This document shows positions 1-16,412 of a stretch of DNA of 56,729 bases, piece after piece. The notes under the pieces are model-generated. The model was not told where the DNA came from. It worked only from the letters and a program-made list of their open reading frames with translations, and did no database searches. The stretch's first letter is position 1; every line of letters begins with the position of its first letter. The position numbers were made by a program, and so were the translations under genes. Location of the stretch: positions 1 to 56,729 of IMG/VR virus record IMGVR_UViG_3300031885_000016; one strand, 5' to 3'. The DNA comes from a virus. Taxonomy: Duplodnaviria; Caudoviricetes.

Positions 1-63
1 CGGAAGTCTTGATCGCCAATGGTTTTGGTTACGACGCCTAGTTTAGTTGTACATTAGGCGTTT

Positions 64-136
64 GACCTCGTAGCTCAGTCGGTAGAGCAACGGACTTTTA
101 ATCCGTGGGTCGTGAGTTCAAGTCTCACCGGGGTCA
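64..136 (+). tRNA. trnK: tRNA-Lys(UUU), no encoded CCA
   Basis: Full cloverleaf: acceptor GACCTCG/CGGGGTC+A, D arm GCTC/GAGC, anticodon arm ACGGA-CTTTTAA-TCCGT, T arm GTGAG-TTCAAGT-CTCAC. Confidence 0.95.
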
Positions 137-150
137 CTTAGGAGAAAACA

Positions 151-300
151 ATGAGTTTCTTTACATATTGCGAAAAGGTTTCTGGTTTTCTGGGGATTAA
201 GTTGGTGCTGGACAACATTCATGTTATCCATCGCAACTGGGCGCAGAACAAAACTGTTGGGGAGACTGCTGAGGCACTTCGCACTAAGAACAAAGTTTAG
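151..300 (+). CDS. Hypothetical 49-aa protein (paralog of 3668-3835)
   Basis: AGGAG RBS and ATG; stop is the TAG inside the motif. Paralog differs mostly at synonymous sites. Confidence 0.8.
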   Translation: MSFFTYCEKVSGFLGIKLVLDNIHVIHRNWAQNKTVGETAEALRTKNKV

Positions 301-319
301 TTGTACATTGGAGGGCAGG

Positions 320-541
320 ATGAGCAACTACTTCTTGAAACTTTGGGTGACTAGTGATCTTACTTATCAAGTCGCCAATCTTGAAACGGCTGAGACAGCC
401 GAATTTACTGACATTGAAAAGGTGTTAGAATTTTGTGGCGTGGCATTGAACCGATTTAAGTCGGTGGGTTGGGATGGTTACAGGATGGTTCAAGAAAAGA
501 TCGGGGAGAATAGCTGGTGGGTGTTGCCTTATCTTGGTTAG
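320..541 (+). CDS. Hypothetical cassette protein
   Basis: GGAGG RBS directly after motif; stop overlaps next motif. Confidence 0.75.
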   Translation: MSNYFLKLWVTSDLTYQVANLETAETAEFTDIEKVLEFCGVALNRFKSVGWDGYRMVQEKIGENSWWVLPYLG

Positions 542-566
542 TTTAGTTGTACATTGGAGGTATACC

Positions 567-824
567 ATGAGCATTAAAGTTCAAAACATTCCGACGTTGT
601 ATAAGCCACGGGGTGCGGTGTCATTGCCAGACAATCGAGATTGGACGAATCGTTTTGAGATTCGATCTGAGACATCTGATCGGATTTATATTATCGCCCA
701 GCACATTAACCATCGGCACTGGGGATGTTCCTGCCCGGCATGGAAGATTCGACGATCTTGCAAGCATTTGAAAACAGTGGGTTTGCCTACTGGGGAAGTT
801 CCTTATGAAGTCAATCTTAAATAA
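567..824 (+). CDS. SWIM zinc-finger protein
   Basis: WGCSCPAWKIRRSCKHL fits CxCx(n)CxH; GGAGG RBS. Confidence 0.8.
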   Translation: MSIKVQNIPTLYKPRGAVSLPDNRDWTNRFEIRSETSDRIYIIAQHINHRHWGCSCPAWKIRRSCKHLKTVGLPTGEVPYEVNLK

Positions 825-942
825 GATTTTCAATCTGGATGCTGATCCACAAGATTTGAATCTTCAATTCATGTTGGCGATGGCAATATGCATCCTGACC
901 CCTATGGGGATACTGTTTTATTTTTTTGGATAGGGGGCCAAT

Positions 943-1122
943 ATGACTAATGAAGAACTGCTTAGAGCGATTCGAGAAAACAGAGAGAAGCTAGAGCTTC
1001 TTGTGCAGGCAATGGAACGACATAAGAAACGCCGGTGGTGGAATCAGTTGGTTCAATACCTATCCATATTGCTTGGAATTATTGTTGGTCAATTGGCGTT
1101 CAAGTTCTGGATGGCTAGTTAA
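943..1122 (+). CDS. Small protein with C-terminal TM helix (59 aa)
   Basis: MTNEELLRAI...SILLGIIVGQLAFKFWMAS; stop TAA inside motif copy 1118. Confidence 0.7.
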   Translation: MTNEELLRAIRENREKLELLVQAMERHKKRRWWNQLVQYLSILLGIIVGQLAFKFWMAS

Positions 1123-1141
1123 GTTGTACATTGGAGCATTC

Positions 1142-1456
1142 ATGGAAACCAAAAAGAAGAAACGTGGATTCTTGGATGGCTATAAGAAGTATGATACTTC
1201 TAATGGGTTTGGGAATCGTCAAGAGTGGATGAATGCTTTTTATGCTCGGCTTGGATTTGAGCAGGCCCTTGAGGTATTGGGGGAGGATGATCCTCTGGTA
1301 TTGTTTGGTTTGAAAGCTGATGCGACGTGGGCGGATGTATCTGCTAGATGGCGGGAGTTGGCTGTGAAGCATCATCCTGATAAGGGTGGCGATCCTGTTG
1401 TGTTTAAGAAATACGGTGCGGCATTTGAGGTATTGGAAAGGCGGTATGGCAAATGA
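1142..1456 (+). CDS. J-domain (DnaJ-like) protein
   Basis: WRELAVKHHPDKGGDP contains the HPD J-domain signature; GGAG RBS after motif. Confidence 0.85.
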   Translation: METKKKKRGFLDGYKKYDTSNGFGNRQEWMNAFYARLGFEQALEVLGEDDPLVLFGLKADATWADVSARWRELAVKHHPDKGGDPVVFKKYGAAFEVLERRYGK

Positions 1457-1761
1457 TTAAAGCCAAGATTCATTCTGACGATTATGTGTTTGAATATGAA
1501 TTTGACGGCACACCTTGGTTCAAAGAGGCCAGCTTAGAGGATTTGCATCGGTTGTATGCTGAGGGCTGGTGTAGTTGCATTGAAGCCGATCAAGTGGCAA
1601 TTGAGGCCAGTAATGGTCCTATGACCGAAGAAACCGAGAATATCAAATTCCTTATTGATTACTGCCAGCGTAAAGGCGAGGGATTTGAGGTTGAGATTGA
1701 TGAGTTATCGGTTTTGGGTTGGCTTAAGTCTAACCGTCCTGATGTCTTGCTAGAAGTTTAG
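1453..1761 (+). CDS. Acidic hypothetical protein
   Basis: ATGA overlap with the J-domain gene; ends EV-stop in motif. Confidence 0.75.
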   Translation: MIKAKIHSDDYVFEYEFDGTPWFKEASLEDLHRLYAEGWCSCIEADQVAIEASNGPMTEETENIKFLIDYCQRKGEGFEVEIDELSVLGWLKSNRPDVLLEV

Positions 1762-1804
1762 TTGTACATTGTGTGATTGTCTCAAATCAAACAAGGAGAA
1801 AATC

Positions 1805-2221
1805 ATGAGCTATGACAACGATCATCGGGTGCGGGCTGGGCGTAGAACTAAGCGATTGGAAGTCCAAGGCAACCAGTTAGTTGGTTGGGTTACTTCAGAC
1901 GATGAGGATGAGGTTCTTGTCGAATTTCCTTTGAAGTATGAGGCATGTCCGACTTGTCAAGGTCGTGGGAAGCATACCAATCCATCTATTGACAGTCATG
2001 GGTTATCTGCTGAGGATTTTGCGGAAGATCCAGATTTTCTCCAAGATTATTTCAGCGGTGTGTATGACGTAGCTTGTTATGAGTGTGGTGGTCGAACTAC
2101 GGTGGCTGTTGTGGATGAGGCTCGTGCCAATCCAGAACAATTGGCTTTGTGGCACGCTCAAGAGCAATGGGATCGGGAGTATGAGGCCGAATGTGCGGCT
2201 GAGCGTCGTTTCGGGTATTAG
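1805..2221 (+). CDS. Zn-finger protein (DnaJ-type CxxCxGxG)
   Basis: CPTCQGRG and CYECGG; AAGGAG RBS. Confidence 0.75.
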   Translation: MSYDNDHRVRAGRRTKRLEVQGNQLVGWVTSDDEDEVLVEFPLKYEACPTCQGRGKHTNPSIDSHGLSAEDFAEDPDFLQDYFSGVYDVACYECGGRTTVAVVDEARANPEQLALWHAQEQWDREYEAECAAERRFGY

Positions 2222-2259
2222 TTTAGTTGTACATTGGGGAGTCATAAGGGAGAACAAAA

Positions 2260-2625
2260 ATGAAAACGATTGATGTAAACGAAGAGTATACGGATGTGTT
2301 GTTTGCGGTTGCTTCGACTTATGCGGATTGTCGCCCTGATATTATGGGTGAGGATCATGCTTATCGCACTCGCAAGTTGATGTGGCGTGCTGCTCGGGCT
2401 GTGCCTCGTGATGCTGCCAAGATCATTTTGCAGCGATGTATCCCTGAGGGGTACAATGCGTTTGAGGCTAATTTGCTGGATTTGCTTCCGGCTGATTGTC
2501 AGGTTGAGATTGCTCGGGAATACTCCGTTTGCATTTATGTGCAAAAGGCGTTGAAAGAGATTCCTGATATGCTGGCTGACGAATGGCATGTTGAGGGGGA
2601 TGTGACTCGGATTTGGTGGGACTAA
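2260..2625 (+). CDS. Hypothetical protein
   Basis: GGGAG RBS, 121-aa ORF after motif. Confidence 0.75.
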   Translation: MKTIDVNEEYTDVLFAVASTYADCRPDIMGEDHAYRTRKLMWRAARAVPRDAAKIILQRCIPEGYNAFEANLLDLLPADCQVEIAREYSVCIYVQKALKEIPDMLADEWHVEGDVTRIWWD

Positions 2626-2759
2626 TGACCACTAAAGAAAAAGTTTTTCTTAGTGATTTTTGACTTCATCTGTAATAGAGAGGATGAAGATCACGAAGCC
2701 AAGGTCAATGCGGCATTGGATCGAACTGTAGTCAAGGAATTACGGGAAAGATTTGAAAT

Positions 2760-2978
2760 ATGAATTGGAAAGTTGGCAAGGCGTTGATTTGGTGGGGTGT
2801 GTTTGGTTTTGGTGTGATTTTAACCAATATGGCGATGGGAGTTGTAGATCGTCGTGTTGAGTTTCTTGAAATGATGATTTGGGTGGCTTGTGCTTCATTC
2901 TTTGTGGCAAGCTATTTGGAGAATATCAAGCCGAGTCATTTGGGATTCATTGAGCATTTTTTAACAAAGAGGTATTGA
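2760..2978 (+). CDS. Small membrane protein
   Basis: Two hydrophobic segments; ends 3 nt before motif. Confidence 0.65.
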   Translation: MNWKVGKALIWWGVFGFGVILTNMAMGVVDRRVEFLEMMIWVACASFFVASYLENIKPSHLGFIEHFLTKRY

Positions 2979-3017
2979 GAAGTTTAGTTGTACATTGTTG
3001 GATCAAGGAGACTAAAC

Positions 3018-3389
3018 ATGAAATACACTGGCACGATGGATTGGACTTTTGAGCCGGAAGATGGTCCGATAACTGCAATTGACTTTTCTTTTTCTTGGGG
3101 ATATAACCCACAGACTCCCGACGTTATGTATCTTCGCAATGGCGATCCTGGGTATCCAGGCGATCCAGAGGAGATGGAGATTACGGAGATTGAGCGGGCT
3201 GATATTAAAGCTGTTTGGTTCGGGGATACATCTATCCAAAGGCATATGTGCCAAGAGCAATGGTTTTTCACTCAGACGGTAAAATGGTTGAATGAAAATA
3301 CCGAAGTTGGCAAACCGTTGTATAATGCTATCTTGGAGAGGGTTCGAGAAGAATTGGCGGCACGATTGGAGGTGTGGGATGAAGATTGA
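3018..3389 (+). CDS. Hypothetical acidic protein
   Basis: AAGGAG RBS; contains NGDPGYPGDPEE. Confidence 0.75.
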   Translation: MKYTGTMDWTFEPEDGPITAIDFSFSWGYNPQTPDVMYLRNGDPGYPGDPEEMEITEIERADIKAVWFGDTSIQRHMCQEQWFFTQTVKWLNENTEVGKPLYNAILERVREELAARLEVWDED

Positions 3390-3546
3390 TCCGATTTCAA
3401 AAAAGCAGATTGAACAATTGCGAGAGCAAGTGAAGTTGCAGGCGGCTTATATTCGGTTTCTGGAGCAAGGATTGTCTGCTGCTCAAGATAAAGAGTTTAA
3501 TCGCAAGGTCGAAGCTGGAGAGCTTGATTACGCTAAGGGCTGCTAG
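3379..3546 (+). CDS. Small coiled-coil protein
   Basis: GGAGG RBS; stop overlaps motif 3546. Confidence 0.65.
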   Translation: MKIDPISKKQIEQLREQVKLQAAYIRFLEQGLSAAQDKEFNRKVEAGELDYAKGC

Positions 3547-3560
3547 TTTAGTTGTACACT

Positions 3561-3654
3561 GACCTCGTAGCTCAGTTGGTAGAGCAACGGACTTCCGCTG
3601 TTGAAACAGCATGAATTAATCCGTGGGTCGTGAGTTCAAGTCTCACCGGGGTCA
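3561..3654 (+). tRNA. tRNA-Lys-derived gene with 21-nt insertion in the anticodon loop (intron-containing, decoy or pseudo-tRNA)
   Basis: Identical to 64-136 except one D-loop base and the insert CCGCTGTTGAAACAGCATGAA (3595-3615) between U34 and U35. Confidence 0.8.
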
Positions 3655-3667
3655 CTAGGAGAAAACA

Positions 3668-3835
3668 ATGAGTTTCTTTAAATACTGCGAAAAGGTTTCT
3701 GGTTTTCTGGGGATTAAGTTGGTGCTGGATAACATTCATGTTATTCATCGCAATTGGGCACAAAACAAAACAGTTAGTGAAACTGTTGGGAATCTAATGC
3801 TGGAAAAACTGGAGAGAAATCAGGAGAAAGTATGA
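3668..3835 (+). CDS. Hypothetical 55-aa protein (paralog of 151-300)
   Basis: MSFFKYCEKVSGFLGIKLVLDNIHVIHRNWAQNKTV...; AGGAG RBS. Confidence 0.8.
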   Translation: MSFFKYCEKVSGFLGIKLVLDNIHVIHRNWAQNKTVSETVGNLMLEKLERNQEKV

Positions 3836-4017
3836 AAGACGCTTTAATTATGGGTGGTGCAGTTCTTGGTGTGCTGTGCCTGATTGCCTTAGTGGTATCA
3901 GTGGTTATTGCGATCTTTCCTTTCTTGGTTGCAATTGCTGGTGTCGTTATCATATGGAGAATTGTCCTTTGTGTGATAAGTGGCACGCCGTTTTTTACTG
4001 GGAAGTTGCCGTGGTAG
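3832..4017 (+). CDS. Small membrane protein
   Basis: Highly hydrophobic, ATGA overlap, stop overlaps motif. Confidence 0.75.
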   Translation: MKDALIMGGAVLGVLCLIALVVSVVIAIFPFLVAIAGVVIIWRIVLCVISGTPFFTGKLPW

Positions 4018-4071
4018 TTTAGTTGTACATTGGTGGTTTGTTCTGAACGAGTTTAACTAAGGGAGAATTGA

Positions 4072-4323
4072 ATGGCTGGTAAGGAAAAGGCTGCGAAGCG
4101 TCCGAGTTGCACATTGGCTCAAGTGCTGGAGACTGGTGCCTTGGAGGTTCATGTTGGAGGAGTGTTGATTGGCGTTGTGAATCCGAAGGAGTTTTCGACT
4201 GGAAGCTTTGGGTTTGGCTTTCAGGGGCCTGTTGCTATCAAGCTGAAGGATGGCATTGCTGAATGTCAGGTCGGCTTGAACATTACGGTGAAGCACAGCA
4301 AGCCCGAGTCGGCGGCTGCGTAA
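4072..4323 (+). CDS. Hypothetical protein ending in -SAAA
   Basis: GGGAG RBS; contains KEFSTGSFGF. Confidence 0.8.
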   Translation: MAGKEKAAKRPSCTLAQVLETGALEVHVGGVLIGVVNPKEFSTGSFGFGFQGPVAIKLKDGIAECQVGLNITVKHSKPESAAA

Positions 4324-4391
4324 TTCATGGTCATTGGTGGGTAGGCCACAAAGACTAAAAAATAGGGTCTACAAATACAAAGGGGAGACTG

Positions 4392-4658
4392 ATGATTAGC
4401 GTAGTGTTTCGGGTGACGTTGCAGGGTAGTTATGTAATGACTAAGACGATGACCGTTCCTGTTGTCCCCCAGAAGGATGATGATGTGGTTGTGGAGAATC
4501 AGTGGTTTGTGGTTAAAAACAATCGTTTTCTAATGGAACGATCTCAAGCTTATGTGGTAGTGGTGGTCGAGATTCTACGGGAGCAGAATCAAACTAAGCT
4601 TGTGTTGGAGGACAATGGTTGGGTACGAGAAGATACGTTGGAACCTGATGATGTTTAG
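4392..4658 (+). CDS. Hypothetical protein
   Basis: GGGGAG RBS; ends DV-stop in motif. Confidence 0.7.
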   Translation: MISVVFRVTLQGSYVMTKTMTVPVVPQKDDDVVVENQWFVVKNNRFLMERSQAYVVVVVEILREQNQTKLVLEDNGWVREDTLEPDDV

Positions 4659-4699
4659 TTGTACATTCGGGAGATGTAAAACAAAGGGAGAAACAAAGT

Positions 4700-5119
4700 A
4701 TGGGAATGGGTTATGCTGCTACGCACGGTTGGATTTTGACATCTGCGGATCTCAAAAAGATATGTCCTGATGAGTTTGCGGCGGTTGAAGCTGCGTTGGA
4801 GTTGATCGAATCTGATGAAGATGGGCCATATACTCTTGCTCGATATACACAAGCCATTACTAATGGTGAGGTTATCACAGGAGTTATCGACGAAGCGATT
4901 ACTGCTTTAGCTAAGGCGTTTACCGAAAAGACCAAGGTGGGGGACAGCAAGTTGCAGATTTATCTCGGCTATTACGATGCTGATAGCGGCGATATGTATG
5001 ATGAAATTGAGAATGGGGAATACTGGGAGATTGGCGGCATGGAGGCATTGACTCCAGCCGGTGTTAAACTGAAAGAGATTAGTGATGTGGCTCATCAAGC
5101 ATGGGTTCATCTTGGATAG
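4700..5119 (+). CDS. Acidic hypothetical protein
   Basis: GGGAG RBS; stop overlaps motif. Confidence 0.8.
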   Translation: MGMGYAATHGWILTSADLKKICPDEFAAVEAALELIESDEDGPYTLARYTQAITNGEVITGVIDEAITALAKAFTEKTKVGDSKLQIYLGYYDADSGDMYDEIENGEYWEIGGMEALTPAGVKLKEISDVAHQAWVHLG

Positions 5120-5133
5120 TTAAGTTGTACATT

Positions 5134-5570
5134 GGTGGGTGTTGAAACAATTGTCGGCTGACCCTTACGCTTAGGGTCCATTTGATGTCGGTGTCCCAAA
5201 CCTGTGCCACAAGCTATGGGGAGGGAGCAACATCCGTTTAATCGAGCGACAAGCCCGTAATGACCTGAGCGGTCAGAGGGATTTCGATTCACTGGAGTTG
5301 GTGTCCTATTTCGTATTTCATGGATATTGAATAGGAGCAACCCGGTTTTGTTACTTGTCCGACAACAATAACTAGTCTGAGCGATGACGATAAAAGCTTG
5401 CCGTATGGGATTACGTAAAGCCCCCCTAGAACTTGGGTCAATAATCCGCTGGTCATCGTAAGACCACTAAGGCATTGTCCTGCCGGTACAGTCAAGGCAA
5501 ATAGGGCCAAAGTAAGTGAAAGCTTGTAACAGGGAGCCGAAGCAATCGCTAGGCTCCCTGACTTTGTTTT
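5134..5570 (+). ncRNA. Candidate large structured non-coding RNA occupying its own cassette
   Basis: No credible + strand ORF. Nested helices: 5151-57/5359-65, 5160-65/5173-78, 5248-53/5354-59, 5261-65/5271-75, 5304-10/5330-36, 5382-88/5452-58, 5408-13/5442-47. Terminal hairpin 5530-38/5552-60 plus T-rich tail. Confidence 0.65.
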
Positions 5571-5606
5571 ATGACTTATAAAGTTTATTTGTACATTAGG
5601 TTGGAT

Positions 5607-5876
5607 ATGAAGCCGAATAAAATGAAAATTGCTGGCGGGGAATGGATCAAGCTACCCGACTATCCGATGGGTGGCAGACCACTTAAGCCCCGTTGCTCTA
5701 AATGCAATCGTGAATGTGAAGCTCGTTTGCATCGTATGTGGTTGTGTGCTAATTGCCCGACTACTAAAGAACAGCGGGAAAATGCCAAGCCAAAGAAAAG
5801 CAATTCGGCGGCGTTGGCGATGTTGTATGCAGCGGCAGCAATCGGTATGCCGTATATCAAGGTTGACAAAGTTTAG
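5607..5876 (+). CDS. Small Zn-ribbon protein
   Basis: CSKC...CANC; ends KV-stop in motif. Confidence 0.65.
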   Translation: MKPNKMKIAGGEWIKLPDYPMGGRPLKPRCSKCNRECEARLHRMWLCANCPTTKEQRENAKPKKSNSAALAMLYAAAAIGMPYIKVDKV

Positions 5877-5897
5877 TTGTACATTTGGGAGAATGTT

Positions 5898-6236
5898 ATG
5901 AGCATGGGATGGCAGACTACTGAGGATGATGTGATGACGGTTCTATCCGCTCACAATATCAAGGTCACTAAAGATCGGCTAAAAGAGATCTATGAGGGAC
6001 TTGATTTGGATGCGATTGAGGATGGTGTATATTATTACACCAGCATCGACGCCCAGACCGATAGCATGTTGTGTGACATTGAAGATCAGTTGATGGAACA
6101 ATTCATCATTGTCGGCAAAGAAAAACAGTATGACGAAGCCGATGAGGATGAATTCCTTGATGAAGATGAAGATGACGAAGATGACGAAGATGACGAAGAT
6201 GATGAGCATGATTTGAATATGTCCAGCATGTGGTAG
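5898..6236 (+). CDS. Very acidic protein with D/E tract
   Basis: GGGAG RBS; tail DEDEDDEDDEDDEDDE encoded by a GAAGATGAC repeat. Confidence 0.8.
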   Translation: MSMGWQTTEDDVMTVLSAHNIKVTKDRLKEIYEGLDLDAIEDGVYYYTSIDAQTDSMLCDIEDQLMEQFIIVGKEKQYDEADEDEFLDEDEDDEDDEDDEDDEHDLNMSSMW

Positions 6237-6259
6237 TTAAGTTGTACACTGGAGGATAC

Positions 6260-6559
6260 ATGAAACCATTTACTGTGCCGACAATGAAAGTCAAAGTTCT
6301 GATGCTTGCATTTGGCGATCCTGGTCAGGTGCGAGAGGTTGAGGTTCCTGTTGAGTCTGAGAGCGTATTGGATGAGGTTTTCCGATATGGACAAAACGAC
6401 TTTCAGCCGCAGAGATGTCCTAGTGTGAGCAAAGGAGATGTGATCGAATACAACGGTCATCATTTGGTTGCCAGCTTTGGATTCAAGGAGTTATCTGAGG
6501 AGCAGTTGCAGGAATATACTGCAATGGATAGACGAGATCGTTACTTCTATGAAGTTTAG
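6260..6559 (+). CDS. YodL-like domain protein
   Basis: PSVSKGDVIEYNG...VASFGFKEL resembles the YodL motif (SxSxxDV...VDxxGF). Confidence 0.6.
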   Translation: MKPFTVPTMKVKVLMLAFGDPGQVREVEVPVESESVLDEVFRYGQNDFQPQRCPSVSKGDVIEYNGHHLVASFGFKELSEEQLQEYTAMDRRDRYFYEV

Positions 6560-6607
6560 TTGTACATTGGGGTGCTGTCACTAAACTTTTCACAAAGGGG
6601 AGAACGA

Positions 6608-7201
6608 ATGGATCGGCACTATCGGGTACGATATCATGACAAGGGTTTGGGTTCGACGACTTACGGCGTGGTTGACTCTTACTGTCCAGAGGCTAAAAAG
6701 TTGCCAAAGGGGCAGGTGCTTGTTGAGCATGCTATTTATCCCAAGCGGATAGTGGTGGAAGAATCGACGTTGGTTGATATTCCTTTGGCTTATGGTGGGG
6801 AATACGATCAATACGTATGTCTCATGCAGGATTTGCATGAAATATTGGCAGATCGTTTGGGTTATGCGAAATTGAAGCCCGGTCATCAATTCTCTATGAG
6901 TGTTGGTGATGGTGCTGCTCACTACGTTGTGACCAAGGTTCGCCAAGCGACTTGCACGGTGGAATGGCGTGGGTTCAATGGTGATCGGTATGTTGATCGG
7001 GTGTTTGGTTGGGGTGGTTCCTTTCGTCGTAGGGATGTTGAGCCCTTGGTTGGGATTGGCCATCAGCCTTTTTCCAGTTTGCTTGAACCTGATCGGGTGA
7101 AAACACTGGAGAGTGAGATCGGCCAGAAGATGATTGGTTTCCAAAGAACTTGGAAACAGTCTCCCCAAGAGTTGTTGGCCATGTATAGTCAGATTGTGTG
7201 A
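6608..7201 (+). CDS. Hypothetical protein
   Basis: GGGGAG RBS; ~197 aa; followed by terminator. Confidence 0.8.
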   Translation: MDRHYRVRYHDKGLGSTTYGVVDSYCPEAKKLPKGQVLVEHAIYPKRIVVEESTLVDIPLAYGGEYDQYVCLMQDLHEILADRLGYAKLKPGHQFSMSVGDGAAHYVVTKVRQATCTVEWRGFNGDRYVDRVFGWGGSFRRRDVEPLVGIGHQPFSSLLEPDRVKTLESEIGQKMIGFQRTWKQSPQELLAMYSQIV

Positions 7202-7214
7202 GTCTCCCCAGGAT

Positions 7215-7266
7215 GGCTCCCCCAACCGAATTCTCCCGATTCGGTTGGGGTTGAGCCTCTTTTTTT
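7215..7266 (+). terminator. Intrinsic terminator
   Basis: CCCCAACCGAAT/ATTCGGTTGGGG stem plus T-tract immediately before motif 7271. Confidence 0.8.
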
Positions 7267-7324
7267 GGAAGTTAATTTGTACATTATGTTGGCATCGGTA
7301 ATTCAATCATTCAGGGAGCCAATC

Positions 7325-7729
7325 ATGTATCGCTATCGTTGTGAAGGTCATACGACTTGGAACGCTCGCAAGAATTTCAATCGTGTAGGTGTTCTGGGTA
7401 AGATCAAGCGAGTGAAGGGTTATCGTTTCACTTCATGCCGCAAGAACAACAGCAATCAACCTGTTCAGCATGAATACGTGTTGGTGGTGGGGGAGAATGG
7501 TTCTTGTCGTTTCAGTGGTTTGTGTTGGGGTTATGGTGGTGAAGGTCCGAGCGGGCTGTGTGAGTTGCTCAAGATGTTGGGCATCGAGGGCAACATGGCA
7601 GCGAACATTGCCTATGACTCGTACCGTGGTCAAGCTGACGGGACTGATTGGGAACTTAAGTTCCGTGAAGGGCAATTCAGCTATATGAATGGGAATTGGA
7701 CAAGCTATCACGAATGGCAAGCCGCCTAG
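7325..7729 (+). CDS. Hypothetical protein ending in -QAA
   Basis: Contains WGYGGEGPSGL; GGGAG RBS; stop overlaps motif. Confidence 0.8.
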   Translation: MYRYRCEGHTTWNARKNFNRVGVLGKIKRVKGYRFTSCRKNNSNQPVQHEYVLVVGENGSCRFSGLCWGYGGEGPSGLCELLKMLGIEGNMAANIAYDSYRGQADGTDWELKFREGQFSYMNGNWTSYHEWQAA

Positions 7730-7781
7730 TTTAGTTGTACATTTGGGAGAGTGTAACAACAACATTCAACGGGAGAATAGA

Positions 7782-8177
7782 ATGCTGACTCAATCTAATT
7801 TGCGACAGTTTACGGGGACTGAGGGTTATTTGCGATGGCAACCTTTGTTGTTCCCCCGCATGGTTCTGAGTGAGGGTGCCAAATACGTTGCCGAACGTGG
7901 CGGCGAGGGCAACAATAGTGCTTGGTGGTTGATGGATGCAATTGCTTCTCATCAGCCGAAGTGCTTGAAGATCGAACAGTTGCGTGAGATTCAATTCTGG
8001 ACGTTGAAGAAGAATGCTGATGGTTCGGCATTGTTGACGTGTCAGATTGATTCAGGGGTGAAGCCCACGATTACCCAGAAAATTCCTTATACGGATTTTT
8101 CCTTGGATGAAATCAAGTTGTGGGTGGGACCGCTGAACGAACGGCTATATGTGATCTATCTGCCTAGCGAATCCTGA
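7782..8177 (+). CDS. DUF6876-like protein
   Basis: FTGTE...SEGAKYVAE...WWLMDAIASHQ...QFWTL...QKIPYTDF matches my recollection of DUF6876. Confidence 0.65.
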   Translation: MLTQSNLRQFTGTEGYLRWQPLLFPRMVLSEGAKYVAERGGEGNNSAWWLMDAIASHQPKCLKIEQLREIQFWTLKKNADGSALLTCQIDSGVKPTITQKIPYTDFSLDEIKLWVGPLNERLYVIYLPSES

Positions 8178-8231
8178 GTAGTTTAGTTGTACATTGGGAG
8201 AGTGTAACAACAATTCAATAAGGGAGAAATC

Positions 8232-8486
8232 ATGGGACGTTCGACTACTCCGACCTATCGTTTGCGGATTGATGGCACAAGTCTGATCTGGCGTGGCAAA
8301 GCTACGCAGAAACGGCTTGAGGAATACGTCATGCAATATGGCAAGTCATTGGAGCTTGGTGGTGCCAATGAGCATATCTCCAAGAGCTTAGGATATATTC
8401 CTTATCCGAATAAGGCTATCTTGATTCGTCAGTCTACCAATGAAGTCGTCGCAACTTGGCAGGCGGCTATGTTTCAAGTGTGGTAG
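8232..8486 (+). CDS. Hypothetical protein
   Basis: GGGAG RBS; stop overlaps motif. Confidence 0.75.
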   Translation: MGRSTTPTYRLRIDGTSLIWRGKATQKRLEEYVMQYGKSLELGGANEHISKSLGYIPYPNKAILIRQSTNEVVATWQAAMFQVW

Positions 8487-8508
8487 TTTAGTTGTACATT
8501 GAGGGATT

Positions 8509-8700
8509 ATGAACAGTCGAACCGAAACTCGTCGTGGTTTCAATGGCGATCCTGATGATGTGGATTGGGTTGAGATTGCGGCAGAGCGTAATTTCTTGCA
8601 GATTGCCAAGTGTGCGGTTGTGGCATGGGTTGAAATGCAACTCGATAGCCTTATTGATTATCTTGACACTGAGGCACAAGCTAAGGAGCTTTTGGGATGA
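8509..8700 (+). CDS. Hypothetical protein
   Basis: GAGG RBS right after motif; ATGA overlap with next gene. Confidence 0.65.
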   Translation: MNSRTETRRGFNGDPDDVDWVEIAAERNFLQIAKCAVVAWVEMQLDSLIDYLDTEAQAKELLG

Positions 8701-8903
8701 AATACACTTTCCAAGTTGAAGTGACGTTCGATAACGAACAAGTGACCGATGGTCAGGCTCGTGAGATTGTGGATGGCATCATTGCCCGTGGCATGGAAGA
8801 TTTACGTTCTCAATTGGATGACGATGATCTGTGTCAAGAGGATTTTGATGACAATGATCCGTTTAAACTCTTTGAGCAGATTGAGGACATCAAGCTAGTT
8901 TAG
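8697..8903 (+). CDS. Small highly acidic protein
   Basis: LDDDDLCQEDFDDND; ends LV-stop in motif. Confidence 0.75.
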   Translation: MKYTFQVEVTFDNEQVTDGQAREIVDGIIARGMEDLRSQLDDDDLCQEDFDDNDPFKLFEQIEDIKLV

Positions 8904-8921
8904 TTGTACATTAGGAGAAAC

Positions 8922-9203
8922 ATGATGCGTGACCACGGACATGAAATGTTGGGCAGGACGATTGTGTTGGCTGCCCAATGTGCGGCTATTCCCTACGATA
9001 CTGGTAGGATTGCCAATGACCCAGAGTACATCAAACAGCTTGTTGAGGATATCATCGTTGGAGTGGGTCGCAATGAGCTTGAATGTTTGCAGGATATTAT
9101 TGGGGAGGCTCTTTGCACGATTGAAGATCCATCCACACGGGAAGAATTGGGATGGATACCCCAAACACTTTTGAATTACAAAGCTCCGAAAGAACAAAGT
9201 TAA
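8922..9203 (+). CDS. Hypothetical protein
   Basis: AGGAG RBS right after motif; stop TAA inside motif 9199. Confidence 0.75.
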   Translation: MMRDHGHEMLGRTIVLAAQCAAIPYDTGRIANDPEYIKQLVEDIIVGVGRNELECLQDIIGEALCTIEDPSTREELGWIPQTLLNYKAPKEQS

Positions 9204-9252
9204 TTTGTACACTACTGGAGTGTGATTAACAAAACATCAAAGGGAGACGATC

Positions 9253-9555
9253 ATGGAAAAGTTTGACGGTGGCACGATCATTGCGGGGCGACAGAACGTA
9301 GAAAATGTTCGGCTGTATGTGTGGCGTTCTGGTTTGAAGCTGGAAGTTGTGGGGCTGAAGAAACGTGGTCCATCCATGTTTGCCATCGTGAAAAAAGCTC
9401 TTGGCCTATCTGGCAACAAGATCAAAGTGTTGCAAGGGCTGAACAAAGAAATTGTCAAGATGGAACAAAGTGTGGGCCTTACGGGTATTGAGGAACGACA
9501 GGCACAAGAAGATGCCTGGATCAAAAAGCAGTTGGAAAAGAAAAACCGGGTTTAG
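9253..9555 (+). CDS. Basic hypothetical protein
   Basis: GGGAG RBS; 100 aa. Confidence 0.75.
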   Translation: MEKFDGGTIIAGRQNVENVRLYVWRSGLKLEVVGLKKRGPSMFAIVKKALGLSGNKIKVLQGLNKEIVKMEQSVGLTGIEERQAQEDAWIKKQLEKKNRV

Positions 9556-9556
9556 A

Positions 9557-9709
9557 ATGTGGCAATTTCACTATCTTCGCAAAGGCTCATGGTCAACCAT
9601 CCTGCCAGATTCAAAGTATCCTACACGATTGTATGATCTTTGTTTCTGGCATCATGGTTTGGCGAAGCTGGGTAGTCCAGAGCCTTGGTTTATTGAGTGG
9701 CTAGTTTAG
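9557..9709 (+). CDS. Small aromatic-rich protein
   Basis: Starts 1 nt after previous stop; ends LV-stop in motif. Confidence 0.55.
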   Translation: MWQFHYLRKGSWSTILPDSKYPTRLYDLCFWHHGLAKLGSPEPWFIEWLV

Positions 9710-9759
9710 TTGTACATTGGTGGGGCAATTGTTCTAGACAAATCATTTGGGGATTTGAC

Positions 9760-9924
9760 ATGATGACTGTACGTGAAGCTCGTCAGGATATTATTCGTGC
9801 CATTTATGGTGAGGGATATAGTTGGGCGGCTCGTACAGCTATTAAGTACAATCAGCAAGAGTTCTTTGCATGGGCTGTTATTGCAGTCGGGCAATGGTAC
9901 GATGGTTGGGATAGAACCTTGTAG
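9760..9924 (+). CDS. Small hypothetical protein
   Basis: ORF after motif 9704. Confidence 0.55.
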   Translation: MMTVREARQDIIRAIYGEGYSWAARTAIKYNQQEFFAWAVIAVGQWYDGWDRTL

Positions 9925-9956
9925 GGTTGTTACCTACATTCAAACGGGAGATTGAC

Positions 9957-10382
9957 ATGGGCTGGTATTACACCGAGACGACTAAGAAGCAGTTGATTGA
10001 GAGTCGAATCAAACCTTGGGAAAACATTCGGGGCGATTTGAAGGTCAATTCCCAATGCATCGCTCATTGCTATCGTGGCAATCGGTTCTCCGGTGTGTTG
10101 TATATGGTTCTTGAACATACTCGCACCAACATTGTCACTGGCGAGGTCAAGATGACTGATCGGTGGATCGAAGTTGACTTGCTTCGGTATCATTCGGGCA
10201 TGTGGGGTTATAAGGATATGGAAGAATCCATGCATCCTTATTACTACTCTTGTCCTCTGAGCTATCTGGCAATGGTGCCTAATGTTACGAGTGAGGAGTG
10301 GCGTGCTGGTGTGCAAAAATACCATGCACGGAGCTTGGAGAAGCGTCGGATTAATCGTCAATTTAAGTTGGCACTTGCTTAA
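9957..10382 (+). CDS. DUF6927-like protein ending in -LALA
   Basis: WGYKDMEESMHPYYYSCPLSYL...WR motif as recalled for DUF6927; GGGAG RBS. Confidence 0.65.
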   Translation: MGWYYTETTKKQLIESRIKPWENIRGDLKVNSQCIAHCYRGNRFSGVLYMVLEHTRTNIVTGEVKMTDRWIEVDLLRYHSGMWGYKDMEESMHPYYYSCPLSYLAMVPNVTSEEWRAGVQKYHARSLEKRRINRQFKLALA

Positions 10383-10418
10383 GTTAAGTTGTACACTTGA
10401 CAGTTAGCAAGTTGTGAA

Positions 10419-10709
10419 TTGGTTGGCAGACGTGATGCGTTTCACGTTCCAGCTATTTTGGTTAGGAGTAATGATTTTGTTACTCCAGGTGAGGGGTTAC
10501 GGTTCGTTGATGATGCTCTCACTGAGGTGGTTACGGCGGGTTATGGGACTCGCCAAGCCGTTGCTGATCCATTTGTCAGCGAGATCAATCAAGATTCGTT
10601 TTGGGCGTTGTTGATGCCTGATACGGTTCAAAACCTGACTCACAATTTCGAGGTAAATATCGAGATTGACCCGTATCTGGGTGGCGATGGTGAATGTCGG
10701 ACTTGCTAG
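10419..10709 (+). CDS. Hypothetical protein (start uncertain)
   Basis: Fills the cassette; stop overlaps motif 10709; no clear RBS. Confidence 0.55.
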   Translation: MVGRRDAFHVPAILVRSNDFVTPGEGLRFVDDALTEVVTAGYGTRQAVADPFVSEINQDSFWALLMPDTVQNLTHNFEVNIEIDPYLGGDGECRTC

Positions 10710-10762
10710 TTTAGTTGTACATTGCAAGTTTGTGACAATGAATTAACTTAAAGGAGATAACC

Positions 10763-10858
10763 TTGATCCTGTGGTTGCCAAAACCGATCAAGGTCAGACT
10801 GAGCAAAAACCTGATTGTTTTTAATTATCTAAATAGAAACAAAGGGCCGCCCATCTGA
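10763..10858 (+). CDS. Putative 31-aa peptide MILWLPKPIKVRLSKNLIVFNYLNRNKGPPI
   Basis: AAGGAG 6 nt before a TTG start; only ORF seen in a cassette closed by a terminator. Confidence 0.45.
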   Translation: MILWLPKPIKVRLSKNLIVFNYLNRNKGPPI

Positions 10859-10897
10859 CCACTAACTAGAAAAGATTAAAATTTTTATATACTAATT

Positions 10898-10931
10898 AGA
10901 CTCAAGTGGGACGCCACTTGAGTCTTTTTTT
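10898..10931 (+). terminator. Intrinsic terminator
   Basis: AGACTCAAGTGG-GACG-CCACTTGAGTCT plus T-tract. Confidence 0.85.
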
Positions 10932-10997
10932 ATAGTCACACATGTGAAGTTAATTTGTACACTGGAGGAATGTAAAATAAAACTAAAGGAGAGACGA

Positions 10998-11129
10998 ATG
11001 AGGTTTATCTTTCATTATTACGATGCGGGCTGGAGTGTGGCCTGTCAAGCATGGAAGGTTTCTCTTGAGGATTTGTTGAACAATGCCAGAAAGCATAATC
11101 ATCCGCATTATGTTGAGTGGCTAAGTTAA
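10998..11129 (+). CDS. Small hypothetical protein
   Basis: AAGGAG RBS; stop inside motif 11125. Confidence 0.65.
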   Translation: MRFIFHYYDAGWSVACQAWKVSLEDLLNNARKHNHPHYVEWLS

Positions 11130-11194
11130 GTTGTACATTGTGTTGTTGTTCTGGTGAGAGCCAGTTTCTAGTTTCTTTGTTTTTGGGAGATGTT

Positions 11195-11722
11195 ATGGAA
11201 ACGATTGGAAATGTTGGGAGCGATCCGATTCTGAGTGCTGGTGCTGCGATCATCGATGCCACGCCTGAGATTGTGGTCGTGACCGAAGTGACCCCTGAAG
11301 TGACCGCTGTGGTTGCTCCGAAGGTTAAGAAGGCCAGCAAAAAGAAGGCCAAGATCGTGGTTGTGGTCAAGAAAAAGACCGCCAAGACCAAGGCTAAGAA
11401 GGCCACCAAGAAAGCTGCGAAGGGTAAGACGTTGGGTCGCCCCCGTGCTTACACGGATGCCGATCTGAAGAAGGTTGGCAAGCTGGTCGCCAAGTTGGCG
11501 AAGGATGGTAAGGGAGATGCTCTGGGTCGTGCCAAGGATATTCTTCATGCCAAGAGTGGCAAGCTGGCCGCTCAGCGGGTTGAAGCTGGTTTCGACAAGC
11601 CGCTCGGAATCAAGTATAAGAGCGGTCGTGTCAGCCTTATCTCGATGCCGAACATCTGGAAGGCGAATTCCTTGTATGGTGCGGAGTTGCCGCTGGGTCG
11701 TCCGTCGAAGAAGGCCGCATAG
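11195..11722 (+). CDS. Lys/Ala-rich histone H1-like protein with two GRP (AT-hook-like) motifs, ends -KKAA
   Basis: KKTAKTKAKKATKKAAKGK; LGRPRA and LGRPSKK. Confidence 0.75.
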   Translation: METIGNVGSDPILSAGAAIIDATPEIVVVTEVTPEVTAVVAPKVKKASKKKAKIVVVVKKKTAKTKAKKATKKAAKGKTLGRPRAYTDADLKKVGKLVAKLAKDGKGDALGRAKDILHAKSGKLAAQRVEAGFDKPLGIKYKSGRVSLISMPNIWKANSLYGAELPLGRPSKKAA

Positions 11723-11744
11723 TTCCCACTTGTGGGCTTGTTAG

Positions 11745-11785
11745 GATACCTCCCACCCGCCTATGGGTGGGAGGTATCTCTTTTT
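11745..11785 (+). terminator. Intrinsic terminator
   Basis: GATACCTCCCACCC/GGGTGGGAGGTATC plus T-tract before motif 11787. Confidence 0.85.
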
Positions 11786-11810
11786 AGTTTAGTTGTACAT
11801 TGGAGAAGTC

Positions 11811-12170
11811 ATGGCAAAAGCATTAGTCGAACTCGCCTTGAAAGCTGTACAAAACATCAAGAATGATGAATGGGTTAGCCTCAGAATTCGATTGGATCGA
11901 ATGGGCATCATTCTGGAGAATGTCCAGAACACGATGGAAGATTTGCGGGCTGAAATTCAACAGACGGAAGAATTAGACCGCCATTTGTATTGCTGTGTCA
12001 ATTTGGAGGGAGTTGTAATCCCTCATACCGATCAAGAGTGGTTGAGTCAATCGGAAGCCAATACCCGCAATCTTGAATTGCATAAAATGGGTGTGGGCAT
12101 GGTTTATGTCGAAGTTTGGCGTATTGAGAATCGTAAGGTAGTTCACCCACCGGAGAGGCAAAGTGAATAG
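11811..12170 (+). CDS. Hypothetical coiled-coil protein
   Basis: GGAG RBS directly after motif. Confidence 0.7.
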   Translation: MAKALVELALKAVQNIKNDEWVSLRIRLDRMGIILENVQNTMEDLRAEIQQTEELDRHLYCCVNLEGVVIPHTDQEWLSQSEANTRNLELHKMGVGMVYVEVWRIENRKVVHPPERQSE

Positions 12171-12351
12171 AAAACAAGTCAAAGCTCTGCACAATGGTGA
12201 TGAGGTATTCTGGAATGATCCCGCTGAGGGAACTTGCAGTAAATACATAACCATTCAATCTATTTGGGTTGGCGATGGTAGTGATCCGATTGTCAAAATC
12301 ACTGGCAAAGACGGCAGTGATCTGGAGTGTTGGGCTCATGAGCTAAGTTAA
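12163..12351 (+). CDS. Small SH3-like hypothetical protein
   Basis: LHNGDEVFWNDP...ECWAHELS; stop inside motif. Confidence 0.65.
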   Translation: MNRKQVKALHNGDEVFWNDPAEGTCSKYITIQSIWVGDGSDPIVKITGKDGSDLECWAHELS

Positions 12352-12390
12352 TTTGTACATTGCTGAGCTAAGTTAATTTGTACATTGCTG
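12339..12390 (+). repeat. Perfect 25-bp tandem duplication containing the motif
   Basis: TGAGCTAAGTTAATTTGTACATTGC x2. Confidence 0.95.
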
Positions 12391-12421
12391 GGATGTATCA
12401 CAATTCAAACTGGAGTAAACC

Positions 12422-12583
12422 ATGAGCAGAATACTTACTGTGCCACAAAGGCATCAGCTTGCCATTGCTCGCAAGACTCTGACTTATTCTGATGTGGGGG
12501 CCAAGATTATGGGTGGGCCAACCAAAGAAGAAGCAAGGGCCATCATCCTCAAACTGACTGGCGAAGTCGTCAAAGAAGTTTAG
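12422..12583 (+). CDS. Small hypothetical protein (53 aa)
   Basis: GGAG RBS; MSRILTVPQ...GGPTKEEARAII...KEV-stop in motif. Confidence 0.7.
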   Translation: MSRILTVPQRHQLAIARKTLTYSDVGAKIMGGPTKEEARAIILKLTGEVVKEV

Positions 12584-12641
12584 TTGTACATTGCTGGGAT
12601 ATATCCAACAATTCAAACCGGAGCAGTACATTGGAGCAAAT

Positions 12642-13055
12642 ATGGAACAAATCATTGTCGTCGTAATCATGAACAACGTGGTAAATGATTGCAAGTTGTT
12701 TGATGATGTGAAGCTGGCTGAGCAGGAGTTCATTGAAGCGGTTAAGCTGCGATTGTGGCGTGGCGATAATGTTAATGATATGGAATCATACCTTGAAGAT
12801 GGGTATTATCCATTCGAGGATGGATCGGTGTGTATTACGCACCCCCAACCTTGCAGCAAACGGCTAGTGCAATGCTCGTGGGAAACGTATTGTACGAAGG
12901 ATCGTGTTGTCCCTGTTGCCGATTACGATGAACGGGTGAAAGTTACATTGACAGCCAATACTACCGAACATTATTTAGACGGTGTTCTGGTGGCAAGAGC
13001 CAGTTATTACAATGGGGCTGAGCCCATCTATGAATTGGCTCAGTACCTAGTTTAG
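12642..13055 (+). CDS. Hypothetical protein
   Basis: GGAG RBS preceded by partial motif GTACATT; ends LV-stop in motif. Confidence 0.7.
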   Translation: MEQIIVVVIMNNVVNDCKLFDDVKLAEQEFIEAVKLRLWRGDNVNDMESYLEDGYYPFEDGSVCITHPQPCSKRLVQCSWETYCTKDRVVPVADYDERVKVTLTANTTEHYLDGVLVARASYYNGAEPIYELAQYLV

Positions 13056-13103
13056 TTGTACATTAGTGGGCTGTAACGGACAAACAACCTCCAAGGTGCA
13101 AAG

Positions 13104-13655
13104 ATGAAAACGATCACTGTCGAAGAATTGGCAAAGAAGCTGTACGATGAGAAGGGCACGACGTTTGCGACGATTCTGGCCTTCACCAAGCCCAACTTTG
13201 TTGGTGGGCAAAAATGCCCGATGATTCAACGGGGCGTCAAAAAGCTGGCTGTCGTCAACGTAATGATCGGAAACTGGTCATACGAAAACGCTGTCAACAA
13301 TCAACGGGAACGTGAACACGCCGATGAAAATGAAACGGTCGAACACTTCACCGCTCAAAGCCGCTCTTGGGGCGAACAACTCGCAACCGAAGTCGGCAAA
13401 CGGATCGGCCTGATTCAACATACGAAAGACGGCGAAGTTAAAACCTACCTGAAAACCAAAATTCAGAAGTCGCTTCGCCACTCTTACTATGACAACAACG
13501 GCCAGCACGTCAACCGTGAGGAAGCCGAACAACACATTCGACGAAACAAGCCATCGGTTCGCCAAGGTGTTGAGAAAGAGGTTTTTGAACGGGATTACGA
13601 ATTGAAAAACATTCGTGCTATCAGAATGCACGGCGAAGTTTACGTCATCGCCTAA
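13104..13655 (+). CDS. Hypothetical protein
   Basis: 183-aa ORF, AAGG RBS, followed by terminator hairpin at about 13659-13688. Confidence 0.85.
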   Translation: MKTITVEELAKKLYDEKGTTFATILAFTKPNFVGGQKCPMIQRGVKKLAVVNVMIGNWSYENAVNNQREREHADENETVEHFTAQSRSWGEQLATEVGKRIGLIQHTKDGEVKTYLKTKIQKSLRHSYYDNNGQHVNREEAEQHIRRNKPSVRQGVEKEVFERDYELKNIRAIRMHGEVYVIA

Positions 13656-13753
13656 GATTCTCCCCCCGAAAGGGGGGAGCTTTCTTTTCATAATCTTGCA
13701 AAGTTAATTTGTACATTAGTGGGTTGTAACATCAACAACCAAGGGGAAAAATC

Positions 13754-14005
13754 ATGAGTGTTGAATTTGAGCCGTCTGCATTGAAGTTGCAACTCCAAGC
13801 CGCTCTAGGATTGAGCGATGATGATTTTGGTTATCATGCGACGGATTTATACGTGCTGGACAAGCCCGGCGTAATGGACTGGTTGAAAAAGAACTACGGT
13901 AGTTTCCGCAGCATCAAGCGGTTCATCGGCAATGCTGGACACCCGACTTTTGGGGGCAAACCTGCCCTGGATATTCCCTTCGCTGGAATTTGGAAGAAGG
14001 TTTAG
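13754..14005 (+). CDS. Hypothetical protein
   Basis: YHATDLYV...LDIPFA; ends KV-stop in motif. Confidence 0.75.
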   Translation: MSVEFEPSALKLQLQAALGLSDDDFGYHATDLYVLDKPGVMDWLKKNYGSFRSIKRFIGNAGHPTFGGKPALDIPFAGIWKKV

Positions 14006-14047
14006 TTGTACATTGTTGTGACGTAAACCAAAAATTCCAAGGAGAGA

Positions 14048-14254: not shown

Positions 14255-14274
14255 TTGTACATAGGGGACAACAG

Positions 14275-14397: not shown

Positions 14398-14417
14398 TTG
14401 TACATTTAGGAGACATC

Positions 14418-16409: not shown

Positions 16410-16412
16410 TGA

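Follow-up and report, generated by a model that had tools for sequence, protein, structure and literature searches.

A candidate noncoding RNA gene built of variable hairpin modules in the cassette array of an uncultivated huge phage

The large ornate RNAs ROOL and GOLLD are often encoded in phages and prophages near tRNA genes. CsrB, RsmY and RsmZ are chains of hairpins with conserved loops, the repeat number of which varies between relatives, and they possess a 3′ terminator hairpin; a 3′ hairpin followed by a U-tract is also characteristic of trans-acting bacterial small RNAs (sRNAs). The small stable RNAs of phage T4 (species 1 and 2, or RNA C and D) lie beside tRNA genes and are much shorter molecules, cut from tRNA precursor transcripts. 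The present study concerns a unit of about 430 nt without a long open reading frame (ORF), located at positions 5134 to ~5570 on the + strand of the IMG/VR record IMGVR_UViG_3300031885_000016 (Duplodnaviria; Caudoviricetes); the whole stretch of 56,729 nt that was analysed, positions 1 to 56,729 of the record, is called the window below.

The unit is read here, with a probability of roughly 0.55, as a stand-alone noncoding RNA (ncRNA) gene of a new family, the loops of which would be recognised by protein and which would act as a platform or a decoy. That it is a functional ncRNA gene at all appears highly probable from the comparison of sequences, because the unit is ORF-free in three orthologous loci, has comparable position and boundaries there, and contains invariant blocks and compensatory stem changes. 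Given a functional ncRNA, a mode of action by protein binding, and not by catalysis, ligand binding or base pairing, is proposed tentatively, at slightly less than even odds. The orthologs were obtained by scanning metagenome contigs with the 17-mer of the promoter-like motif that precedes the unit, which yielded 80 stretches, including 13 with at least two copies, representing phages that use the same promoter. When all 80 stretches were searched with the unit by nhmmer, only two matched: L227 (4490–4992, E 3.4e-12, covering the full unit) and L213 (1944–2139, E 7e-18). The orthologous cassettes, L227:4490–4998 and L213:1921–2323, are both ORF-free and bounded by promoter and terminator, and they constitute the homolog collection that the initial annotation of the unit had proposed. 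The L227/L262 contig is largely collinear with the array of the window (67–99.9% identity per cassette) and holds the RNA at the corresponding place; in L213, where the array position is only roughly comparable, a homolog of the upstream gene 4700–5119 is present. The blocks shared by the three loci are 15–33 nt long and 90–100% identical, and are separated by stretches that cannot be aligned and by indels with lengths not divisible by three; the flanking genes are ~70–87% identical, compared with 90–100% for the RNA blocks.

Comparison with described RNA families did not reveal a relative. An Rfam 15 search of the whole window at gathering thresholds found two tRNAs only, and at E ≤ 10 there were no matches for window 4900–5800 and L227 4470–5010, and two noise rows (E 7–8) for L213 1900–2340. 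ARAGORN found tRNA or tmRNA genes in the window only at 64–137 and 3561–3655, and none in the L213 and L227 cassettes. As far as covariance models (CMs) can see, ROOL, GOLLD, OLE, raiA, RNase P, 6S, SRP, group I/II introns, self-cleaving ribozymes and riboswitches are excluded; the initial annotation, which saw no hallmarks of RNase P, tmRNA, SRP or group I/II introns, agrees with the Rfam and ARAGORN results, and the scan including ROOL and GOLLD that it had suggested produced no credible match in any of the three loci. Among sources available in part, a literature search on the array motif or similar huge-phage RNAs gave unrelated primer matches and papers on GOLLD/ROOL only.

The unit resembles ROOL and GOLLD in being a several-hundred-nt, ORF-free, stand-alone phage RNA gene located at most ~1.5 kb from tRNA genes, and, like them, it has no known function (PMC12286853), but it has no CM match to them at E ≤ 10, is shorter (~430 nt) and contains variable modules without a conserved global multi-branch architecture. 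With CsrB, RsmY and RsmZ it shares the hairpin chain, the conserved loops, the variable number of units and the terminator hairpin, but it has no GGA enrichment, it bears several distinct loops and not one reiterated loop, and L213 contains single copies. A sponge of the CsrB/Rsm type was tried and rejected, since GGA occurs 8, 6 and 8 times in the three RNAs (8.0, 6.0 and 8.4 expected) and A.GGA 4, 2 and 1 times (2.0, 1.5 and 2.2 expected). Like T4 species 1 and 2, with which it was compared by description only, the unit would be a phage-encoded, stable non-tRNA RNA of no known function near tRNA genes of the early region; unlike them, it has its own promoter motif and terminator. Like ToxI and phage pseudo-ToxI, it would be a phage-borne noncoding RNA with repeated units and a putative protein partner, but its units are long, imperfect and heterogeneous instead of forming a tandem array, and no toxin gene adjoins it. 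A ToxI-like antitoxin was rejected as a candidate: TRF gave 0 rows in 5000–5700, the sole direct repeat is 10 nt long and the neighbouring ORFs have no family match. Mimicry of tRNA was rejected as well, since the three RNAs, aligned locally with the phage tRNAs, score within the range of shuffles.

The features of the locus are listed below. Two covariance models, R1 for module A and R2 for domain B, were built from these same sequences, and their bit scores are therefore partly circular.

5117–5133, + strand: promoter-like motif of the array, TAGTTAAGTTGTACATT, overlapping the stop of the upstream ORF 4700–5119.
5134–5159, + strand: 5′ leader, starting with GGUGGGUGUUGAAAC, like the leaders of neighbouring protein cassettes, many of which start with (A)GGUG.GUGUAAC.
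5160–5178, + strand: hairpin H1, GACCCU / AGGGUC, pair probability 0.95; the L227 form is GAUCCC / GGGGUC.
5184–5234, + strand: module A copy 1, composed of a stem, an internal loop GGUGUC (5′) / GGAGCAAC (3′), a stem and a variable tip; 59.3 bits with R1.
5254–5280, + strand: hairpin CCC..UGACC-UGAGC-GGUCA..GGG, pair probability 0.93–0.99; window-specific, no counterpart recognised in the orthologs.
5291–5346, + strand: module A copy 2, ACUGG-A-GUUG-GUG-UCCUAUUU ... GAAUAGGA-G-CAAC-CCGGU; 73.2 bits with R1, fold z −3.58.
5151–5157 with 5359–5365 and 5249–5253 with 5354–5358, + strand: closing helices of domain 1 in the minimum free energy (MFE) fold, pair probabilities 0.58 and 0.27.
5372–5464, + strand: domain B, with helices P1 (GUCU / AGAC) and P2 (GCGAUGAC / GUCAUCGU), fold z −2.14; it encloses the invariant strand GACGAUAAAAGC (5386–5397), hairpin X, CUAGAA (5426–5431) and AAUCCG (5443–5448).
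5402–5415, + strand: hairpin X, CGUA-UGGGAU-UACG, then UAAA; four copies in the three loci.
5466–5525, + strand: variable 3′ hairpins, not alignable with the orthologs.
5530–5570, + strand: terminal hairpin CAGGGAGCC-GA-AGC-AAUC-GCU-A-GGCUCCCUG, then a U-tract (5563–5570); pair probability 0.99, similar to an intrinsic terminator, loop conserved.
5581–5597, + strand: promoter-like motif of the next cassette, AAGTTTATTTGTACATT, heading a Zn-ribbon-like ORF (5607–5876).

The succession of module A and domain B between the array motif and the terminator recurs in all three loci, and no independent member of the family was found in 23 promoter-sharing sources, in 25 distant relatives or by pattern scans of IMG/VR. 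Module A is a long hairpin with the internal loop GGUGUC / GGAGCAAC, present in two copies in the window and in one copy each in L213 and L227 (67.8 and 69.6 R1 bits, respectively); the 16-mer CACTGGAGTTGGTGTC of copy 2 is identical in L227. A 9-mer of the conserved 3′ strand of module A is the same as the ribosome-binding region GGAGCAACC that precedes an ATG at window 19517–19545, by coincidence or common origin. Domain B, scoring 122.9 R2 bits in the window, 108.2 in L213 and 30.2 in L227, is represented by one nearly identical copy in L213; in L227 a profile recognises three related units, and the CM aligns 4771–4919 as one enlarged domain at 30 bits, in which the closing helices, read by eye, are shorter. 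The 17-mer GCGATGACGATAAAAGC of this domain is identical in all three loci. A further hairpin, Y, with the loop GCGAUUCUC, is followed by hairpin X and stands after domain B in L213 and before it in L227; H1 and the terminal hairpin are common to the window and L227. The conserved part of the RNA thus looks like a set of local hairpin modules, the number and order of which vary between phages.

The stems of these modules have changed in a compensatory manner under fixed loops. Hairpin Y has six pairs, four of which changed on both sides, with all alignment cells paired and the loop GCGAUUCUC invariant. Between the window and L227, four of the 12 pairs of the terminal hairpin changed on both sides (95.8% of cells paired), the loop GAAGCAAKCGCUAG being kept. 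The four copies of hairpin X have 16/16 cells paired and two of four pairs changed on both sides; in module A, this is the case for three of 12 predicted pairs. In H1, the five pairs aligned between the window and L227 are all paired, one having passed from C-G to U-G, and the sixth pair, read by eye, from U-A to C-G. Sliding the 3′ partner by 1–3 columns lowers pairing to 6–70% in every stem tested; the stems were derived from the same sequences on which they were tested. G-U pairs are retained in H1, module A and P2 of domain B, which fits an RNA of the + strand only.

These observations bear directly on the suggestion, considered very improbable, that the unit works at the level of DNA within a transcribed spacer, for example as an origin of replication, as iterons bound by a protein, or as a site of recombination or packaging. 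The unit is indeed ORF-free and contains repeated blocks, GACGATAAAAGC occurring once in the window and in L213 and as three related copies in L227. Stems that co-vary under fixed loops and retain G-U pairs are, however, strand-specific signatures of RNA; moreover, the G+C content of 47% is similar to that of the flanks, without an AT-rich unwinding region, the blocks of L227 are spaced irregularly, and there are no tandem repeats in the unit.

The coding capacity of the unit was assessed against the whole array. The cassette 5124–5587 is the sole gene-less one among 56 and has the lowest coding coverage, its best + strand ORF comprising 25 amino acids (aa; 17%), which confirms the earlier description of the only long ORF-free unit in a dense array. 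TAA, TAG and TGA stops are mixed in all three + frames, so no stop reassignment rescues an ORF, and an open frame common to the three orthologous cassettes was found in none of six frames, the conserved blocks switching frame between orthologs; a protein-coding gene, standard or recoded, was rejected on these grounds. A small peptide beginning with MTIKACR, the ORF of which starts inside GCGAUGACGAUAAAAGC, was rejected too: the frame is kept in two loci and changed in L213, and one copy in L227 has no AUG; no Shine–Dalgarno sequence was seen, by eye, in front of this ORF. Minus-strand ORFs of 77 and 73 aa are broken in the orthologs and have no family match. Pfam and PHROG searches gave no match for the ORFs inside the unit or for the two flanking proteins (4700–5119 and 5607–5876).

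A decayed coding gene, which the initial annotation had named as a finding that would speak against an ncRNA, was therefore sought by protein-family match and by shared frame in the three orthologs, with negative results. The more general view, in which the unit would be a protein-coding cassette in decay or a neutral spacer that cassette shuffling left behind, is regarded as highly improbable. It would be in line with the mosaic character of the array, where the window and L227 share one 1.8-kb block at 99.9% identity and others at ~70%, with the contig joints at promoter motifs, with the occurrence in module A of GGAGCAACC, which equals the ribosome-binding region in the 19517 cassette, and with the unremarkable fold energy. 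Against it, three diverged phages have kept the unit at a comparable place (roughly so in L213), with perfect short blocks and compensatory changes; the three copies have no frame in common, and no protein family matches.

In all three loci, the array motif precedes the unit and a terminator-like hairpin with a T-tract closes it; in the window, the 5′ end of the RNA would be at or adjoining G5134. A role as a cis-acting leader or attenuator governing read-through to the downstream cassette seems extremely improbable: the conserved loop of the terminator could bind an antiterminator, but a separate promoter motif heads the next gene, and what lies downstream is a different gene in each of the three loci.

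The energy of folding gives a mixed picture. For the unit as a whole, the folding energy is −147.8 kcal/mol, with z −2.91 on the + strand (0/100 shuffles) and z −1.64 on the − strand. There are nine perfect 7-bp inverted repeats, where dinucleotide shuffles have 5.6 ± 3.2 (48/300 reach 9); the only enriched size is the 6-mer, with 39 inverted repeats against 23 ± 6 (2/300). Two individual modules stand out, copy 2 of module A (z −3.58, 0/200 shuffles) and domain B of the window (z −2.14, 3/200); the others range from −1.24 to +0.23. The complementary segments named in the initial annotation are present in the sequence, namely TTGTCGG (5151–5157) / CCGACAA (5359–5365), GACAAG (5248–5253) / CTTGTC (5354–5359), GTCT (5375–5378) / AGAC (5461–5464), GCGATGAC (5381–5388) / GTCATCGT (5452–5459) and the 3′ hairpin (5530–5560) with its T-tract; GGATTA (5408–5413) and TAATCC (5442–5447) are complementary as well, but their pairing lies outside the MFE fold. 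The closing helices of domain 1 are so judged lineage-specific or due to chance, because no counterpart was found in L213 or L227 (sequences and folds read by eye); the predicted fold of L227 is closed by a different 5′–3′ helix, again read by eye. The idea of one large, highly structured, nested multi-branch fold could not be upheld, given the unremarkable fold energy of the orthologs and the lineage-specific long-range closing helices of the window. What stands of the earlier proposal of an unclassified large ncRNA is a stand-alone, non-coding and conserved unit without a described family and with stem changes under fixed loops, but not the single ornate fold.

In the mechanism proposed here, transcription would start from the same 17-nt motif that heads the small genes and tRNAs of the array, and the transcript would end at its own hairpin and U-tract. 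The RNA would be a chain of modules, consisting of H1, module A (GGUGUC / GGAGCAAC), domain B with the GACGAUAAAAGC junction, CUAGAA and AAUCCG, hairpins X and Y, and the terminal hairpin. Selection would act on the sequence of loops and junctions, with stems co-varying as mere supports and with copy number and order differing between phages. The transcript may be abundant and, presumably, early; its single-stranded loops would be recognised in a sequence-specific manner by a host or phage protein, and the RNA may act as a binding platform or decoy in host take-over. Recognition by protein is favoured over a single precise tertiary fold because the loops are conserved, the stems variable and the modules variable in number and order.

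Another function for the conserved junction of domain B (GACGAUAAAAGC closed by P1 and P2, together with CUAGAA and AAUCCG) would be that of a ribozyme or small-molecule aptamer core, with the other hairpins as a peripheral scaffold. This is deemed rather improbable. As in aptamers and catalytic cores, the strongest conservation is found in unpaired junction strands of a closed multi-helix domain, and domain B of the window folds better than shuffles (z −2.14, 3/200), but there is no match to a ribozyme or riboswitch family even at E ≤ 10, and the triplicated junction block and reduced P2 of L227 would be odd for a precise active site; a usual riboswitch would be located upstream of a constant gene, which the unit is not. 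A small chance is likewise given to a base-pairing RNA or a precursor, that is, a long primary transcript cut into small RNAs, or seed loops pairing with host or phage RNAs. The conserved loops of 9–14 nt could be seeds, CUAG, a recurrent sequence at module borders, is enriched in L227 (7 against 1.9 expected; 3/500 shuffles), and the 3′ hairpin and U-tract are like those of trans-acting bacterial sRNAs. However, complements of the conserved blocks (at most one mismatch) in the 56.7-kb window do not exceed chance, and CUAG is not enriched in the window copy or in L213. More specifically, the RNA might be an early counter-defence or take-over decoy that mimics a site of a host RNA-binding enzyme or an immune sensor, or else domain B might be a new ribozyme or aptamer core, a pair of possibilities that is thought unlikely; in the case of a decoy, the mimicking blocks would be the GACGAUAAAAGC junction, the CUAGAA and AAUCCG strands, and the GCGAUUCUC and GAAGCAAUCGCUAG loops.

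Several observations weigh against the proposed protein-binding ncRNA. The family comprises three sequences in total, all from closely related phages. Stem changes are paired under fixed loops, as covariation among homologs would have it, but the alignments have 2–4 rows, and 12–39 of 500 shuffles reach the covariation scores. In a sliding control, four of 26 windows of 440 nt (positions 1–5940; 25 shuffles each) have z ≤ −2.5; one of the four overlaps the cassette, one holds a tRNA and two are in protein-coding cassettes. Coding windows nearby thus reach equal z, and fold energy alone does not single the unit out. The global fold of the orthologs has z of only −0.66 (L227) and −1.49 (L213), and some modules fold no better than shuffles (copy 1 of module A −0.46, module A of L213 −0.10, the two Y + X pairs +0.23 and −0.20). 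The long-range architecture is not the same across the orthologs, P2 of domain B, read by eye, shrinks to 4 bp in L227, and the multivalency that marks a sponge is missing from L213, which has single copies of A and B. The neighbouring genes differ in the three loci, and no partner protein is conserved next to the unit. In distant relatives (~56–64% baseplate identity), R2 found 0 of 25 records and R1 gave at most 17.6 bits, compared with 59–73 bits for true copies; the syntenic stretch (L215/L238) of a 546-kb relative contains no copy, the comparison covering 27 kb of that contig (up to 37858, except 5668–16536). Finally, the five sequencing runs listed for the stretch, all labelled sediment metagenome, are of DNA only; of the four that were compared, X2–X4 have contigs 100% identical over the RNA and X5 does not cover it, so that they provide no variation.

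Searches for further relatives gave consistently negative results. BLAST searches of GenBank phages with the unit and with window 3000–9000 had no match; the flanking proteins 4700–5119 and 5607–5876 have no relatives in IMG/VR, and BLAST against 25 records of baseplate relatives produced chance matches of 14–24 nt only. R1 and R2 found no further members in 23 promoter-sharing sources (180,674 bases) and three IMG/VR chance matches, and the module patterns had 0, 3 (chance) and 0 matches in IMG/VR. The pattern of domain B matched prokaryote genomes five times, in unrelated taxa; these matches were rejected, with ~8 expected by chance, as an estimate, and weak nhmmer scores. Other promoter-bounded cassettes of low coding capacity are present in related phages (L269:3219–3504, L262:4607–4810 and L271:895–1313); they have no blocks in common with the studied RNA and may be further noncoding RNAs.

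The array in which the unit is embedded occupies positions 46–21,018 of the window and is a dense run, on the + strand, of short units, each headed by the motif (T)AGTT(T/A)A(G/T)TTGTACA(T/C)T. The 10-mer core GTTGTACATT, with at most one mismatch, occurs 60 times, compared with 4.76 expected, and 54 of the 60 occurrences are on the + strand within 46–21,018; a somewhat wider pattern delimits the 56 motif-headed cassettes in window 1–21 kb. The motif frequently overlaps the preceding stop codon, and immediately 3′ of it comes either a ribosome-binding site or the conserved leader GGUG.GUGUAAC...; the motif stands 8 nt upstream of tRNA-Lys (64–137) and directly abuts a second tRNA (3561–3655). 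It is probably a promoter, with the start at purines just downstream, and in its 16–17-nt form, (T)AGTTWAKTTGTACAYT, it would drive the small ORFs, two tRNAs and the studied RNA; the variant AAGTTAATTTGTACATT typically sits after terminator hairpins. Neither the window nor four relatives gave a match to T7-type RNA polymerase (PF00940), in a search with controls that were likewise silent. The motif was not found in the five largest distant baseplate relatives, and its 16- and 17-mers had single chance matches only in IMG/VR.

Some further features of the array deserve mention. A 25-nt tandem duplication at 12352–12386 includes the promoter motif and results in two motif copies 25 nt apart, and a GAA/GAT-rich (acidic) low-complexity tract in an ORF at 6158–6206 draws hundreds of unrelated metagenome contigs (depth 180–370). 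The tRNA at 3561–3655, 95 nt long, was predicted by ARAGORN to be tRNA-Arg(CCG); it is the same as tRNA-Lys(UUU) of 64–137 except for one substitution and a 21-nt insertion within the anticodon loop, and contigs of another run skip 38–40 nt at this tRNA. One possibility is a tRNA-Lys that is interrupted, carries an intron or serves as a decoy. L227:1142–2932 and window 1–1791 form a 1.8-kb block of 99.9% identity, other shared cassettes being 67–90% identical, and contig joints of other runs fall on promoter motifs (short sides of ~20 nt). This suggests that cassettes are exchanged at promoter motifs; the short joints could be assembly noise.

The 56.7-kb window is a fragment of a huge phage, the CheckV completeness of 11% implying a genome near 500 kb. 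It contains genes for a tape-measure protein, baseplate and other tail proteins, a Dda-like helicase, a tRNA nucleotidyltransferase of the CCA-adding type (33619–35148, minus strand) and a LAGLIDADG endonuclease with a C-terminal helix-turn-helix, encoded at 54377–55378 amid tail and baseplate genes. The baseplate wedge protein has 284 relatives in IMG/VR, with ~56–64% identity, on contigs some of which are 225–340 kb long and rated 44–69% complete; its best match in GenBank belongs to an uncultured 595-kb phage (43% identity). The distribution of the RNA is best explained by a family confined to one subclade of ~500-kb uncultivated phages.

In huge phages, small early genes without an assigned function form long arrays, and very few phage ncRNAs have a known role. 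The unit described here offers a concrete, bounded candidate, with a promoter motif, ~430 nt of RNA, a terminator, three orthologs, defined conserved loops and co-varying stems. The motif of this array heads RNA genes (the tRNAs and the studied RNA) as well as protein genes, and would drive both, and the RNA itself appears to evolve via gain and loss of modules; were it a decoy, these differences between sister phages would record an arms race. If the conserved loops constitute a protein decoy or a catalytic core, the RNA would be a new class among the few functional RNAs encoded by phages; otherwise, it would be a lineage-restricted RNA of modest reach.

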